Below the pieces are notes generated by a model. That model searched no databases. It was not told where the DNA came from and worked only from the letters and a program-made list of their open reading frames with translations. A stretch of 13,081 bases of DNA from Candidatus Zixiibacteriota bacterium (GTDB taxonomy: Bacteria; Zixibacteria; MSB-5A5; GN15; FEB-12), in the NCBI GenBank assembly GCA_041742355.1, contig JBGSIV010000153.1, positions 1 to 13,081 on the forward strand, given 5' to 3'. Below, in pieces: positions 6,927 through 12,810 of the stretch (within the stretch, counting starts at the first letter, position 1; each line of letters starts with the position of its first letter). The position numbers and the translations under genes are program-made.

Positions 6927-7048
6927 TTCCCCATGGTAAGCAGAGCCATTTCCGCAAGTGAGTCATGGGCGTGCCGCGAGGTCGGCTGCCTCCTTCCTGC
7001 TTTCCTCCGAATGACAATCCAATCAAGATATCGAGGTGCGCTATCGCT

Positions 7049-8773
7049 ATGAAGCCGGGTCTGTTCTCCATATCGGCCGGACGGCTGAGGCCATCGTACG
7101 ACAAGGCGCTCGCGAAGATCGAGCGGGTCGAGGCGATGCGGCGGATTATGACGCGGGATGCGTCGGCATACGGCGGGACCGAAATCCTGCACGAGAAGAT
7201 CACCAACCGTCTGGGGTGGGTCGATATTGCCGGCAAGATGCGTCGGAAAGCGGCCGAAATTGAGGCCTTCGGGCAATCGGTGCTCCAGGACGGCCTCCGC
7301 CATGTCGTGCTGCTGGGAATGGGGGGATCGTCACTCTGCCCCGACCTCTTCGGGCGGGTGTTCGGGACCCGCGCGGGGATCGAGACGTTCACGGTGCTCG
7401 ACTCGACCGATCCGTCGGCGGTGAAAGCGGCGCGGCAGAGGATAGCCCTGGATCGGACGTTGTTTATCGTGTCGTCGAAATCGGGCGGGACGGTGGAGAC
7501 GCGGTCGCAGATGATGTACTTCCTTGGGCAGTTGGCGAACGCGGGGATAGAGAGGCCGGGGAGTCACTTTGTCGCGATAACCGACAAAGGAAGCTCGCTT
7601 GCGACCACGGGCAAGCAGGAGAAATTCCGCAAGGTGTTCATCAATCCCTCGGATATCGGCGGGCGGTACTCGGCGCTGTCGTATTTCGGGCTGGTGCCGG
7701 CATGGTTTGCCGGGGTGGGGCTGAAGGGATTGCTCGATGACGCGTTTACGATGGAGAAGCTGGTGCGCGAACGCACCGATGAGACGAATCCCGCATCGGC
7801 GCTCGCGGCGCTGATGGCGACGGCGGCCGGCGAGGGAATGAACAAATTGACGTTCGTGGCTTCGGGAAAGATAGCGCCGCTGATCCCGTGGATCGAACAG
7901 CTGGTGGCGGAGTCGACCGGCAAGAAGGGGAAGGGCGTTGTGCCGATCGAGGGGGAGCCGCTCGGAGCAATATCGGAGTATGGTCCGGATCGGGTGTTCG
8001 TGACAATTCGGATGGACAGCGAAAAGTCCCCGCTGCCAAATGATCTTCGCGGAGCGCTGCAAAAGAAGAACACGCCGATCGTGGAAATCACGCTGAATTC
8101 GCTCGATCAGCTTGGCGGGCAATTCGTGTTGTGGGAGGCTGCGACCGCAGCGGCGGGATGGCTCATGGGAATCAACCCGTTTGACGAGCCGAATGTGACC
8201 GAGAGCAAGCAGAACACCGAGAAGATACTGGACGGGTACCGTGAGTCGGGGCAGTTCGCGGATCTGACGCCGTCGGCGTCGTACAACAGCCTCGCGCTCC
8301 TGAGTCATGGCGGGCGGAAAAAGTACAAGCTCTCGGAGATTTCCGACCTGAAGCAACTGCTGGCGAAATTCCTGGGCGGGTTGAAGGGGCCGCAGTATCT
8401 GTCCGTCCTGTGTTACCTGAAAGAAGAGCCGCAGATCGATAAGGCGCTGAGCCAGGTGCGGACAGCGATTCGCCGGAAACACAAGACGGCGACGTTGCGG
8501 GGGTACGGGCCGAGGTACCTCCATTCGATCGGGCAGTTGTATAAAGGAGGGCCGGAGGAAGGGCGGTTTATCGTCTTTGTCCGGTCGGATTACGAGTCGC
8601 TGGAGATTCCTGGCCGTTTCTATGATTTCGGCCAACTCATCACGGCGCAGGCGATCGGCGATGCGCGCGCCCTGCTTTCGCGCAACCTGCCGATCCTCGT
8701 GTTTGCCGTCAAGGGAAATGCCATCAAAGGAGTAAAGGAGTTCGCCGATGTCATCGATGCGGTTTGCCAGTGA
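7049..8773 (+). CDS. pgi: Glucose-6-phosphate isomerase of the type found in transaldolase/PGI fusions, here stand-alone, 574 aa
   Basis: RLGWVD, LLGMGGSSLCP, LDSTDP, VSSKSGGTVET, FVAITDKGSSL, DIGGRYSALSYFGLVPA, WIEQLVAESTGK, INPFDEPNVTESK, GPRYLHSIGQLYKGGP, AQAIGD. GAGGTG SD 10 nt before ATG7049. Confidence 0.85.
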   Translation: MKPGLFSISAGRLRPSYDKALAKIERVEAMRRIMTRDASAYGGTEILHEKITNRLGWVDIAGKMRRKAAEIEAFGQSVLQDGLRHVVLLGMGGSSLCPDLFGRVFGTRAGIETFTVLDSTDPSAVKAARQRIALDRTLFIVSSKSGGTVETRSQMMYFLGQLANAGIERPGSHFVAITDKGSSLATTGKQEKFRKVFINPSDIGGRYSALSYFGLVPAWFAGVGLKGLLDDAFTMEKLVRERTDETNPASALAALMATAAGEGMNKLTFVASGKIAPLIPWIEQLVAESTGKKGKGVVPIEGEPLGAISEYGPDRVFVTIRMDSEKSPLPNDLRGALQKKNTPIVEITLNSLDQLGGQFVLWEAATAAAGWLMGINPFDEPNVTESKQNTEKILDGYRESGQFADLTPSASYNSLALLSHGGRKKYKLSEISDLKQLLAKFLGGLKGPQYLSVLCYLKEEPQIDKALSQVRTAIRRKHKTATLRGYGPRYLHSIGQLYKGGPEEGRFIVFVRSDYESLEIPGRFYDFGQLITAQAIGDARALLSRNLPILVFAVKGNAIKGVKEFADVIDAVCQ

Positions 8774-10724
8774 CCGGGAGACGGGGGAGCGGGCGTTTGA
8801 TCCGTGGCGCGGATTCTCGCAGAGCGCACTACCGGCCGAATGGCAGAAAAAGCTGACGGCGATGGCCCGGTCGTGCCGGGCGCACATTCTGAAGATGACA
8901 TCAATCGCGGCCTCGGGACATCCGGGCGGTTCGATGTCGTCGATAGAGGTCTACCTGACCCTGTACAATATGGCCAGGGTCGACCCGAAGAACCCGATGC
9001 GGGACGATCGGGATCGGATCATCATCTCTCATGGACATACTTCGCCCGGGGTCTATTCGGCCCTGGCGGCGGCGGGATTCTTCGACATCACACCCGTGCT
9101 CCACGGATTCCGGCAGGGCGGATCACCCTTTGAGGGGCATGTCGAGCGGACAGTACCTGGAGTCGAGTGGGACACGGGTAACCTCGGCCAGGGGCTGTCG
9201 GTGGGGGTCGGCAAAGCGATCTACGCGAGGCTGTCGGGATTAAATTTCCACACTTACGTGGTCATGGGTGACGGTGAGCAGCAGAAAGGGCAGATATCCG
9301 AAGCGCGGCGGATGGCCGCGAAGTTCGGCCTGACCAGCCTCACGGCCATTATCGACTACAACCGGCTGCAGATCTCGGGCCGAACGCGGGACATCATGCC
9401 GCAGGATCTGGCGGCGGAGTGGGAGGCGGATGGGTGGGAGTCAGTGGAGATCGACGGCCACGATTTCGACCAGATTTACAGCGAGCTGCGCCGGGCCCGG
9501 GCCGGCGCTGAGAAGCCGATCGTGATCATCGCCCGCACGGTGATGGGAAAAGATGTCGGCTTCATGGAAAACGACGAGAGCTACCACGGCGCACCGGTGA
9601 AGCCGGAGATGCTGGAGTCGGCGCTTGCTCAGGTGGGGAGCACGCCCGACGATATTCCCTCACTGCTCGAGCTGCGCAAGCAGGGGCCGCCGCCGATATT
9701 CAAGCGAGAAGACACGCCTTATCCGTTGGTCGACGGGGGCGCACCGCACACGTACGATGTGAGCACGGCGACGGACAACCGCTCGGCGTTTGGCAAGGCG
9801 CTGGTGTCGGTGGCTGACATGAACATGGTGCGACCCGATTTCGTCATGGCGGTGTTCGACTGCGATCTGGCCGGCTCGGTCAAAACGTCGGGGTTCGCCT
9901 CGAAGTACCCCGATCATTTCTTCCAATGCGGCATTACCGAGCACAGCACGGCGGCGACGGCAGGAGCCTTGTCGGCAGAGTGCGCGGTATCGGTGTGGGC
10001 CGATTTCGGCGTATTCGGCGTGGACGAGACATACAATCAGGCGCGGCTGAATGATATCAACCACACCAACGTCAAGCTCTTCTGCACGCACACGGGGGTG
10101 CAGGTGGGCGAGGACGGCAAGACGCACCAGTGTATCGATTACTTCGCGCTCTTGAATTCGACGTTCGGATGGAAAGTGATCACGCCGGCCGATCCGAATC
10201 AGACTGATCGGGTGACACGGTACGTGTTGTCGGAGCCGGGCAACTTCGCGGTGTTCATGGGGCGGTCGAAGGCGCCGATTATCACCGATGAGCACGGCAA
10301 GCCGTTCTTCGGCGGTGATTACGAATACCGCTACGGAAGAATGGATGTGGTGCGCCGAGGGGAAAAACTGGCGCTGGTGACGGCCGGGAATATGTGCGAG
10401 ATCGCCATGGGGGCCTGGGAGAAGCTACACAGAGATCATCTGAATATCTCTTTGATCAACGTGTCGGACTGGTCGGATTTCCACGCCGATGACCTCCAGA
10501 TGCTGGCGACATACCAGCATGTTGTAGTGCTTGAGGATCACAATGTGAAAACCGGACTCGGGACCGCCCTGGCGGCCGACCTGTTCCAATCGGGGGCAAA
10601 GTGCACTCTGACGAAGCTCGGGGTGACCGGGTATGCGTCATCCGGTAAGCCCTCGGAGCTGTTCAAGCTGCTCGGCCTTGATGTCGACTCCGTGGTCGGA
10701 CGGATCCGACGAATCCTTTGCTAG
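8748..10724 (+). CDS. tkt: Transketolase (single chain), 658 aa
   Basis: SGHPGGSMS, RDRIIISHGH, GHVE..VPGVEWDTGNLGQGLS, TPP motif MGDGE...IIDYN, IDGHDF, YHG, GITEHS, VGEDGKTHQ, EDHN..TGLG. AAGGAG SD 7 nt upstream; overlaps pgi by 26 nt. Confidence 0.92.
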   Translation: MSSMRFASDRETGERAFDPWRGFSQSALPAEWQKKLTAMARSCRAHILKMTSIAASGHPGGSMSSIEVYLTLYNMARVDPKNPMRDDRDRIIISHGHTSPGVYSALAAAGFFDITPVLHGFRQGGSPFEGHVERTVPGVEWDTGNLGQGLSVGVGKAIYARLSGLNFHTYVVMGDGEQQKGQISEARRMAAKFGLTSLTAIIDYNRLQISGRTRDIMPQDLAAEWEADGWESVEIDGHDFDQIYSELRRARAGAEKPIVIIARTVMGKDVGFMENDESYHGAPVKPEMLESALAQVGSTPDDIPSLLELRKQGPPPIFKREDTPYPLVDGGAPHTYDVSTATDNRSAFGKALVSVADMNMVRPDFVMAVFDCDLAGSVKTSGFASKYPDHFFQCGITEHSTAATAGALSAECAVSVWADFGVFGVDETYNQARLNDINHTNVKLFCTHTGVQVGEDGKTHQCIDYFALLNSTFGWKVITPADPNQTDRVTRYVLSEPGNFAVFMGRSKAPIITDEHGKPFFGGDYEYRYGRMDVVRRGEKLALVTAGNMCEIAMGAWEKLHRDHLNISLINVSDWSDFHADDLQMLATYQHVVVLEDHNVKTGLGTALAADLFQSGAKCTLTKLGVTGYASSGKPSELFKLLGLDVDSVVGRIRRILC

Positions 10725-10756: not shown

Positions 10757-10785
10757 TTGCCGGCCCCTGCCGGGGCTGGTATGCT
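10757..10785 (+). promoter_or_regulatory. Predicted internal promoter for the glk-like/thiN pair
   Basis: TTGCCG (10757-10762) - 17 nt - TATGCT (10780-10785) with a TGn extended -10 (TGG 10777-10779). Confidence 0.55.
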
Positions 10786-10866
10786 TTTGGGAACGACCAG
10801 ACAGCTTCCCGGCGGACGAATCCGACCGGGGAGCAAGACCTGATCCGGCGACAGCCGGGAGACCAC

Positions 10867-11841
10867 ATGTTTGCAGCATATGTAAATCCAAGAACGACCC
10901 GCCTGGCCAGTATCTCGCAGATGAACGGCGAGATCGTCCTGCATAATCGCACCAAATTCAATACCGCCGAATTCGACAGCCTCGAGACCATCCTCCAGCG
11001 CTACTTTCGGCGCAACGAAGGACGAGGCGGCGTACTGGCGATCGCGGCCCCCGGCGTGGAGGAGGGAGAGACGAGGGCGTCGAGCCAGTTGCCGTGGCCG
11101 ATTCATGCGGCGCTGCTGGCGGAGCAGTTCGACTTTGCCTCGGTGCAGCTGTACGATGAGCCGCTGGCGACGGCGCGGGGGGTGTTCGAACTGCGTCCGG
11201 AGAAGCTCTTCACAATCAACCATGGCGCCAAATCACCCATCGGAAATGTGGGGTTGATGGCGGTGGACAGCGGTCTTGAGGAAGTGCTGATGGTCCGCTC
11301 GGGCACGCGCTACTGCACGTTTTTGAGCGACGGTGGGAGCACCGGCTTCGGGCCATCGACGCAGCTCGAGGCGGAACTCTGGCAGCACCTCTATGCGCAA
11401 CGGGAAATGGTTGAAGTGCGGGATGTTGTGGGTTACGGCGGGCTGGTACGGATCTACGAGTTTCTGCTGGAGAACAGGGGGCACGACGTGCCTTCGTGGT
11501 ATGCGAAGGCGGAGGACCGGGCAACCAGGATCGTCGAGATGGCGCTCTCTGGGGCCGATGCTCCGGCGGAAGGGGCGGTCGATCTGCTGGTGGACTGCTT
11601 GGCGGTAGAGGCAGCGAATTTCGCACTGCGCGGGGTGACAACCGGCGGGCTGTATCTCGCGGGCCGGCTGACTACTGAACTGATTCCGGCACTCGATCAG
11701 GGGCAGTTTCTCGATAACTTCCTGCAGCGGGGGGCGGCGGAAGCAAGGCTGAGAGGGATTCCCATTTATGTCATCATGGATCGGAACACGGCCCTCCTCG
11801 GAGCGGCACGGCTGGCGCTGGAGTCGGGTTGTCCGGAGTAA
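10867..11841 (+). CDS. Glucokinase (E. coli Glk family)-fold protein with degenerate catalytic motifs, 324 aa
   Basis: Colinear over its full length with Glk: TRLA, FDSLETIL..Y, LPW.I, GFGPST..E, GLVRIYEFL, EAANFAL...TTGGLYLAG, IPIYVIM..NTALLGAA. GGAG SD 5 nt before ATG10867. The DxGGT, ND, GxGTGLG and EGGH motifs are all substituted. Confidence 0.8.
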   Translation: MFAAYVNPRTTRLASISQMNGEIVLHNRTKFNTAEFDSLETILQRYFRRNEGRGGVLAIAAPGVEEGETRASSQLPWPIHAALLAEQFDFASVQLYDEPLATARGVFELRPEKLFTINHGAKSPIGNVGLMAVDSGLEEVLMVRSGTRYCTFLSDGGSTGFGPSTQLEAELWQHLYAQREMVEVRDVVGYGGLVRIYEFLLENRGHDVPSWYAKAEDRATRIVEMALSGADAPAEGAVDLLVDCLAVEAANFALRGVTTGGLYLAGRLTTELIPALDQGQFLDNFLQRGAAEARLRGIPIYVIMDRNTALLGAARLALESGCPE

Positions 11842-12494
11842 AGAAAAGACGCGCGGTCGCGTTCCTCCACGGCCAATATCGCGACAGCGATCTGCCGTTC
11901 TACCGGGAGCTGTGCCGCGGGGGACGGACAATCGCGGTGGACGGGGGATACGGGTTCTTCCGCAAGGCGGGGATGGTACCGGATGTGCTGATCGGGGACT
12001 TCGATTCACTTAAGCGAATGCCCAAGCTGCCGAAAGCGACCCAGATACTGCGGTATCCTCAACACAAGGATAAGACGGACGCTCACCTCGCGATCGACTA
12101 CTGCCTCGAGCAGGGGGTGGGGAAGATCGACCTGGTGATGCCGGCGTGCGGGGACATAGACCACGCGCTGGGTTCGATACTTCTGCTAGGGCTGGCCGGG
12201 CTGGTGAAGGGGCCCCGGCCGGAGGTGCGAGTGGTCAATCCAGGTTATGAAGTTCGGCTTGTGGCGGATGGACAGACGGTGTTCAGCGCGTGCGCCGGGG
12301 ATACAGTATCGGTCCTGCCGCTTTCGAGCCGGATTCTTCTGACCTGTAGCGGTATGGAGTATGCTGCGCGGCGGGTCTGGCTGCGGTTGGGGGAGACGCG
12401 GGGGTTGCGCAACCGGGTAACCAGGCCGCGGGCGACGGTCGCCGTGAAGGGGAAGGCGCTGGCCATTCACCTGTTCGACGGGGGCAGAAAGTAA
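11829..12494 (+). CDS. thiN: Thiamine pyrophosphokinase, about 221 aa
   Basis: IAVDGG, PDVLIGDFDSL, YPQHKDKTD..LA, GDIDHALG, VSVLP, GMEY, GLRN. TTG start with GGAG upstream, overlapping the previous gene by 13 nt. Confidence 0.9.
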   Translation: MSGVKKRRAVAFLHGQYRDSDLPFYRELCRGGRTIAVDGGYGFFRKAGMVPDVLIGDFDSLKRMPKLPKATQILRYPQHKDKTDAHLAIDYCLEQGVGKIDLVMPACGDIDHALGSILLLGLAGLVKGPRPEVRVVNPGYEVRLVADGQTVFSACAGDTVSVLPLSSRILLTCSGMEYAARRVWLRLGETRGLRNRVTRPRATVAVKGKALAIHLFDGGRK

Positions 12495-12596: not shown

Positions 12597-12624
12597 TTGA
12601 CAACGGGGTCTTAAGGTATATATT
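12597..12624 (+). promoter_or_regulatory. Strong sigma70-type promoter for tRNA-Gln
   Basis: Consensus TTGACA (12597-12602) - 16 nt - TATATT (12619-12624), followed by CAAGGCC. Confidence 0.8.
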
Positions 12625-12690: not shown

Positions 12691-12761
12691 TGGGCGATCG
12701 TCCAATGGTAGGACATGCGGCTCTGGACCGTAGAATCGGGGTTCGAATCCCTGTCGCCCAG
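12691..12761 (+). tRNA. tRNA-Gln (anticodon CTG), CCA not encoded
   Basis: Acceptor TGGGCGA/TCGCCCA; D arm GTCC-AATGGTA-GGAC; anticodon arm TGCGG-CTCTGGA-CCGTA (CTG at 12723-12725); T arm CGGGG-TTCGAAT-CCCTG; discriminator G followed by CTT. Confidence 0.97.
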
Positions 12762-12777
12762 CTTAATTTCCGATAGC

Positions 12778-12810
12778 GGCTCTTCAACGAGATAGTTGAA
12801 GGGTTTTTTT
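12778..12810 (+). terminator. Intrinsic terminator after tRNA-Gln
   Basis: CTCTTCAAC-GAGATA-GTTGAAGGG stem-loop followed by 7 T. Confidence 0.85.

Follow-up and report, generated by a model that had tools for sequence, protein, structure and literature searches.

What does a bacterial glucokinase do once the residues that should make it a kinase have been replaced? The question is raised by glk*, a gene in a 13,081-nt stretch of DNA from a Candidatus Zixiibacteriota bacterium (hereafter the window). The fold of its product, P0001, is kept, while the motifs expected around the cleft are not (table 1).

Table 1. Features of glk* and its neighbours in the window
Feature	Position	Strand	Remark
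Phosphoglucose isomerase gene (pgi), transaldolase/PGI-fusion type (PGI part only)	6965..8773	+	upstream operon neighbour
Transketolase gene (tkt)	8748..10724	+	upstream operon neighbour of glk*
Shine-Dalgarno-like GGGAG	10857..10861	+	5 nt upstream of the glk* ATG
glk* (P0001), 324-aa group II glucokinase-fold pseudokinase, tier 2	10867..11841	+	
Phosphate-1 replacement AYVNPRT (canonical GDVGGTN), residues 4-10	10876..10896	+	motif lost family-wide
D97-E98 at glucose-binding N99-D100	11155..11160	+	E invariant in tier 2 (12/12)
Phosphate-2 loop replacement AVDSGLE, residues 132-138	11260..11280	+	
SDGGS instead of (G/S)EGGH	11326..11340	+	E157->D, H160->S
Helix alpha4 region, residues 161-182	11347..11412	+	dimer interface in E. 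coli Glk (PMC12312565); relatively best kept in tier 2
VRDVVGY instead of xERVLSG	11416..11436	+	E187->R, G192->Y
C-terminal part of helix alpha7 and next strand, residues 238-262	11578..11652	+	dimer interface in E. coli Glk (PMC12312565); best-kept segment
AGRL instead of adenosine motif xGGI	11659..11670	+	
Thiamine pyrophosphokinase gene (tpk)	11829..12494	+	TIGR01378 above cut-off; overlaps glk* stop

Reading frame and replaced motifs of glk*

The reading frame of glk* is uninterrupted, and its GC content by codon position (0.66/0.45/0.74) is as in the neighbouring genes. An in-frame ATG at 10633 was rejected as a longer start, because it overlaps tkt and homologues begin at the position of the shorter one. 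PF02685 matches P0001 at 170.6 bits (cut-off 22.1) over residues 11-317 and is the sole Pfam family reported at E values up to 0.1; with no PF00480 match at the same limit and no additional domain in its 324 aa, P0001 is not a ROK protein. TIGR00749 gives P0001 126.4 against a cut-off of 225.45. This cut-off fails to split active from inactive proteins here, since a canonical Glk of the sister family falls below it (211) and the one protein of the first tier described below that was tested passes it (228.5). A homologue of P0001 with 56% identity is annotated as glucokinase (candidate division Zixibacteria), and a search of the ESM Atlas returned glucokinase clusters only. The AlphaFold2 model of P0001, for which the input was a 146-row alignment with canonical Glks among the rows, has a pLDDT of 95.5, and its best Foldseek matches are 1sz2 (TM 0.88) and 1q18 (TM 0.86); a tier-1 protein folded without an alignment reached a pLDDT of 33.4 and that model was set aside. 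The scaffold, length, Shine-Dalgarno sequence and frame, which the initial annotation had described as preserved, are all in place.

The same annotation had reported, from an alignment by eye, that six motifs were replaced within an intact glucokinase-fold gene, and this reading holds in register. In the HMMER alignment of P0001 to two E. coli Glk chains (9duc and 1q18), N99/D100 faces D97/E98, GAGTGLG faces AVDSGLE, GEGGH faces SDGGS, AERVLSG faces VRDVVGY and AGGI faces AGRL. The phosphate-1 motif lies just N-terminal of the local alignment (residue 10 of P0001 corresponds to residue 14 in E. coli), where D9, G11, G12 and T13 correspond to Y5, N7, P8 and R9, and the multiple alignments concur. 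Pairwise and multiple alignments together rule out that the motifs are displaced elsewhere in P0001. Assembly errors were also rejected as the source of the replacements, because P0002, a protein 85% identical from a separate assembly, carries them too.

The cleft positions of P0001 were read via E. coli Glk numbering, and the roles of the ATP-site positions, as well as that of D100 as catalytic base, are those generally assigned in ASKHA kinases. In the ATP site P0001 has YVNPR for DxGGT, DSG for GTG and GR for GG, so that one of the six scored positions is kept (S135); the further replacements are G136/T137 to D/S, G192 to Y and G263 to R. At the sugar-site positions N99, D100, G138, E157, H160 and E187 it has D, E, G, D, S and R, a score of 1/6, and the catalytic position retains two carboxylates (N99 to D, D100 to E). 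Among 153 comparison Glks, the phosphate-1 Asp is present in 149 and D100 in all, and full scores of 6/6 are reached by 141 for the ATP site and by 140 for the sugar site. Glucose binding in E. coli Glk involves N99, D100, H160 and E187 according to the accessible part of PMC13133996; G138 and residues 157-160 belong to the glucose site (PMC12312565), and the latter source states that there is no ATP- or ADP-bound structure of E. coli Glk. The roles of the motifs phosphate-1 and phosphate-2 were also drawn from the accessible part of PMC5274716. P0001 is very probably not an ATP-dependent glucokinase, and on the basis of these residues it is predicted to be catalytically dead.

Stepwise loss of the ligand sites within the family

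PF02685 is present in 95 of the 285 genomes of the phylum, namely in 82 of 108 genomes of the host's own GTDB family (f1, host genome included), each with one orthologue, in 8 of 14 of the sister family (f2), and in few elsewhere. The loci analysed comprise 79 of the 82 in f1 and 12 others; three f1 sequences were left out of the counts: contig ends cut two of them, and an internal stop interrupts the third (G128). The latter copy, L050 (G128:C52:27674-28621), is the only one of 69 tier-1 copies with an internal stop (TAA), either a sequencing error or a recent pseudogene.

The f1 proteins fall into two tiers. Tier 1 consists of 66 full-length proteins in which the ATP site has gone: the phosphate-1 Asp is found in 0/66 (Y in 59), there is neither a G11-G-T loop nor G192, the T137 position is variable, and the positions of G192 and G263 mostly hold bulky residues. 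The six sugar-site residues N99, D100, G138, E157, H160 and E187 are all kept in 66/66. Tier 2 consists of 12 sequences, P0001 included, which come from 10 genomes of four genera (g1, g2, g17 and g35) together with P0002 and P0004. All 12 score 0-1 of 6 for the ATP site and 1-3 of 6 for the sugar site; D100 is replaced by E in every one, and E187 occurs in none. Of the Glks that belong to other families of this phylum, 12/12 reach the full score for both sites (6 and 6). Most of the 32 metagenome loci belong to the two tiers, and six are canonical.

A quick tree unites the f1 proteins in a single clade (SH-aLRT 100), inside which tier 2 (100) sits on a long stem. In the RpoC tree, also a quick tree (58 genomes, two of 60 having been removed as too short), the tier-2 genera are grouped (93) along with two genomes lacking the gene, which is consistent with vertical descent. 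The Glk of this family was thus disarmed in two steps, the ATP site being lost family-wide first and the glucose site later in one nested clade. Compared with P0001, the tier-1 orthologues are alike in lacking the ATP site and in their place before tpk, and they are ancestral by the tree; they differ in keeping the six glucose residues and K290-M291, and in evolving more slowly. A near relative is named 'glucokinase' in NCBI, and databases likely mislabel glk* as a working glucokinase.

Selection, locus and likely substitute kinases

For 10 within-genus pairs of tier 2, dN/dS (Nei-Gojobori) is 0.07-0.39, with upper 95% limits of 0.12-0.52 in the 7 pairs that were bootstrapped, and for tier-1 pairs with pS under 0.70 it is 0.02-0.30; dS is near saturation for most pairs and exceeds 1 in 9 of the 10 tier-2 pairs. 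The least saturated tier-2 pair (G057-G058, dS 0.41) has a dN/dS of 0.072 (0.03-0.12), as low as in tier-1 pairs. Between glk* and three congeners the values are 0.20-0.27 (upper limits 0.29-0.38), and this genus evolves fastest within tier 2 (0.19-0.39). The tier-2 genome copies are open in 10 of 10 cases over the four genera, nine of them complete (318-324 aa) and one cut by a contig end; in 2000 simulation runs a neutral ORF remained open once at a distance of 0.5. A recent pseudogene was rejected for glk* in view of its open frame, its dN/dS to congeners and the replacements common to all congeners. The gene encodes a pseudoenzyme in the sense that its catalytic residues have been replaced under purifying selection. 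The initial annotation was right that the active site had been lost selectively, with the fold kept and without recent decay, and dN/dS among the orthologues lies below 1, as it had suggested checking; its interpretation missed the two-step history, in which the sugar site is still intact in tier 1.

Although purifying, constraint is relaxed in tier 2. The ratio of glk* distance to RpoC distance rises from 3.0 in tier 1 to 5.2 in tier 2, about 1.75-fold faster (the pairs are not independent), and the control ratios are unchanged between the tiers (4.6 and 4.7 for tpk, 2.0 and 2.0 for tkt). What is best kept is found on the surfaces that form the dimer interface in E. coli Glk. Identity relative to the mean is 1.39 in the alpha4 region in tier 2, compared with 1.14 in tier 1 and 1.00-1.14 in canonical sets, and for the C-terminal part of alpha7 it is 1.53, 1.41 and 1.28-1.32, respectively. 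This interface signal is only partly new, since residues 238-262 are above average in canonical Glks too. In tier 1 the sugar-loop segment has a relative identity of 1.18, and in tier 2 this drops to 0.85. Residues that are common to both tiers and uncommon in canonical Glks concentrate in the interface segments (Q166, W172, Y176, E183, E224, D243, C244, G256 and T258), and the tier-2 alignment of 15 rows has 37 invariant columns.

The gene after glk* is tpk in 73 of 79 f1 loci, the other six ending at a contig edge (73/73 informative), and in 29 of the 73 the stop and start overlap by 4 nt. Upstream, the f1 neighbours are tkt (30), pgl/opcA (18), rpe (13), ybjQ (12) and others (6); the gene that comes after the canonical glk of f2 encodes an OmpA domain in 8/8. 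Twelve f1 genomes have tpk and no PF02685 match, with rpe abutting tpk in nine and tkt in one. The other two of the twelve, G031 and G033, lie inside the tier-2 clade and have only decayed glk* 3' ends before tpk. On the RpoC tree five losses of glk* are inferred, at least three of them forced by well-supported branches, and one loss lies inside tier 2; this repeated loss suggests that the role of glk* is accessory. It is also unlikely that P0001 is an obligate partner of TPK, since TPK persists without intact glk* in the 12 f1 genomes and in other families and is therefore independent of it. A predicted Glk*-TPK complex, for which TPK was folded without an alignment, scored 0.00 and speaks neither for nor against such a contact. 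The distribution of glk* does not follow that of G6PD (22/108), MalQ (13/76), PGI (45/76) or transketolase (75/76), and the analysis revealed no partner, regulon or phenotype.

Several features of the window were noted alongside. Its PGI resembles positions 394-946 of NF007080, the C-terminal portion of transaldolase/PGI fusions, yet is free-standing, and rpe, which in many relatives sits between queG and pgi/tkt, is absent from this locus. The TPK gene probably starts with TTG, giving a 13-nt overlap with the glk* stop, and the TPK motifs DGG, GDxDS and KxxTD are kept over 73 orthologues. The 142-nt gap between tkt and glk* contains a G+C-rich hairpin with a T-rich tail (10758-10781); six such sites were found against 4.3 expected, which is not above chance. 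Downstream of tpk are a near-consensus sigma-70 promoter (11/12) at 12597-12624, a tRNA-Gln(CTG) at 12691-12762 and a terminator-like hairpin at 12778-12805. An ORF at 24-1190 encodes a membrane-protein-like product of 388 aa, which matches no Pfam family and hits NF046093 (cell-surface glycopolymer formation) weakly, far below cut-off.

The check for a canonical glk elsewhere, proposed with the initial annotation, gave no further PF02685 gene in the host genome, which is 93.8% complete. This genome carries two ROK kinases whose motifs are intact, plus another ROK protein that has a longer N-terminus and is truncated at a contig edge. A ROK kinase is present in 73/73 good f1 genomes and in 109/109 good genomes of the order, and the catalytic motifs are intact in all 42 aligned; both host ROK proteins fall below the TIGR00744 cut-off (209 and 216 against 260). 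A ROK-family kinase is the likely candidate for glucose phosphorylation in place of P0001.

Three observations concern the ROK loci themselves. A conserved ROK orthologue (L003:1483-2454, L185-L224) is without the cysteine zinc motif in 9/9 tier-2 genomes, 9/11 sampled genomes lacking glk* and 2/19 tier-1 genomes (one partial); the loss of this motif may have been a single ancestral event, at a point where the RpoC backbone is not resolved. In 38 of 42 ROK loci the next gene after the kinase is one of about 130 codons (L214:2934-3335 and orthologues), which has no Pfam or NCBIfam match and frequently precedes dTDP-sugar genes. The second ROK kinase (L002, G000:C98; also in G100) has the full cysteine motif and adjoins a second, canonical-type transketolase.

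Possible functions and known systems

We give a probability of about 0.5 to the reading that P0001 is a pseudokinase without ATP- and glucose-site residues that persists as a dimer with a regulatory, protein-binding role, glucose phosphorylation being left to a separate ROK kinase. In the f1 ancestor, with a ROK kinase present order-wide, Glk would have lost its ATP site (the phosphate-1 Asp changing to Tyr and the adenosine glycines to bulky residues) and kept the glucose pocket. Since Glk closes on glucose, as described in the accessible part of PMC13133996, tier 1 could act as a glucose-responsive open/closed switch on a partner protein. The ancestor of the four genera, the host's included, would then have lost the glucose pocket and kept mainly the dimer surfaces of the large domain, which would make tier 2 a ligand-independent, more weakly constrained version of the same protein contact, with an accessory role given the repeated loss. 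On the other hand, alpha7 is well conserved in active Glks as well, so that conservation of the interface may reflect folding and homodimerisation only; the evolutionary rate is higher in tier 2 than in tier 1 and the gene is missing or decayed in the genomes described above; and the invariant E98 and D/E/N134 suggest that the tier-2 cleft is still under selection.

The non-catalytic role that the initial annotation had proposed, as a scaffold or regulator or in binding a different ligand, is supported in part, but the relaxed constraint and the repeated deletion or decay, two genomes inside the clade included, make a dispensable, partly vestigial role a real rival. According to this rival, tier 1 held the real function, glucose binding, and tier 2 persists only because weak selection favours a folded, innocuous product and translational coupling to tpk, and is heading to deletion. 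The raised tier-2 rate against flat controls, the five losses, the remnants before tpk and the 4-nt overlaps all agree with it. It is nevertheless rather unlikely, considering the low dN/dS of the least saturated pair, the ten open copies over four genera with dS above 1 in nearly all pairs, and the 37 invariant columns. Moreover, rpe couples straight to tpk in the nine deletion genomes, so coupling of tpk needs no glk*.

The state of the cleft bears on two other explanations. The acidic phosphate-2 loop, E98 and newly acquired residues could let the tier-2 cleft bind another small ligand or a basic peptide, in which case the protein would still be a ligand-controlled switch. Position 98 is E in 12/12 in tier 2 and D in 66/66 in tier 1; within tier 2, D/E/N134 is found in 12/12, E271 in 11/12, and H160 and N99 in 8/12 each; the median net acidity is 15 against 6 in tier 1, and the tier-2 stem of 0.5 substitutions per site, against 0.028 for RpoC, fits a burst of change. 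However, most cleft positions vary freely in tier 2 (position 155 has six residues in 12 sequences, and 158 is S in P0001) and the sugar-loop segment is conserved below average, and we regard this explanation as unlikely. That P0001 is an enzyme after all, one that phosphorylates a sugar with a non-nucleotide donor (PPi, polyP or acyl-phosphate) or catalyses a different sugar reaction in which E98 or D97 serves as base, is very improbable. The carboxylates at 97-98 persist and the operon contains sugar-phosphate enzymes (rpe, pgi, tkt, gnd, zwf and pgl in relatives), but no Mg-binding Asp is left, E157, H160 and E187 are also gone from P0001, and the phosphate-1 motif and the phosphate-2 motif are retained in polyP/ATP glucokinases as far as the accessible part of PMC5274716 goes. 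Such catalysis would be more plausible for tier 1, since neither the catalytic Asp nor any sugar residue varies there; even so, the Thr of both phosphate loops varies freely in that tier, and we consider it improbable.

The first step was perhaps taken more than once. P0146, one of the 153 comparison proteins, and P0175, which is 94% identical to it, score 1/6 for the ATP site and 6/6 for the sugar site. A quick tree places these two sequences amid canonical Glks (SH-aLRT 99) and apart from the f1 clade, and 118 of 119 other homologues of P0146 among the matches listed score 6 on the ATP site. P0146 and P0175 probably reached the tier-1 pattern independently, by convergence. Tentatively, a wider scheme can be proposed, in which the only group II Glk of a bacterial family became an ATP-independent glucose sensor, a sub-branch then turned into a ligand-free or re-liganded regulator, and the unrelated lineage took the first step independently; such proteins would form a recurring, undescribed class of sensors labelled 'glucokinase'.

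Whatever the function, the series from enzyme through a sugar-site-only protein and a site-free protein to gene loss is preserved over about 80 genomes, and each step can be expressed side by side with the others. Going by their residues, proteins of tier 1 would be naturally occurring glucose binders that need no ATP. To treat glk* as the glucokinase in metabolic reconstructions of these genomes is probably an error.

P0001 resembles E. coli Glk (PF02685, TIGR00749; 1sz2, 1q18, 9duc) in fold, length, ancestry, sugar-phosphate operon and probable homodimer surfaces; it differs in its replaced phosphate-1, phosphate-2 and adenosine motifs and in N99, D100, E157, H160 and E187, and it is predicted to be inactive. 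Non-catalytic hexokinases of plants and fungi and the ROK repressors are already known, whereas a bacterial group II Glk pseudokinase is seemingly undescribed: the literature search, with subscription journals mostly outside its coverage, found neither such a protein nor a Zixibacteria Glk variant. The ROK repressors Mlc, NagC and Lmo0178 (Foldseek matches 1z6r and 5f7r) are alike in reusing the ASKHA sugar-kinase fold as a sensor, and unlike P0001, with its PF02685 domain only, they have an N-terminal DNA-binding domain. Streptomyces GlkA, which we take to be a ROK-family protein, differs from P0001 in being an active kinase. It is a bacterial glucokinase that has a regulatory part in catabolite repression in the accessible part of PMC8788730. 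TsaB/YeaZ, described as an interaction partner in the accessible part of PMC2954210, is a bacterial ASKHA protein as well, but it is unrelated to Glk and universal.

Closest to glk* in its likely way of working are the non-catalytic hexokinases, which differ from it in belonging to the hexokinase family, in being eukaryotic and in standing beside active paralogues of the same family; glk* is the only Glk copy, with ROK as the likely substitute. The regulatory hexokinases of Aspergillus are presumably HxkC and HxkD. They are cited as further non-catalytic hexokinases in the accessible part of PMC2755033, which reports that Arabidopsis HKL1 has no glucokinase activity and a largely conserved glucose domain. 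Tier 1, with a sugar-kinase fold predicted to lack kinase activity, resembles HKL1 in that the glucose domain is kept; the regulatory role is that of HKL1, as given in the accessible parts of PMC2755033 and PMC3594732.
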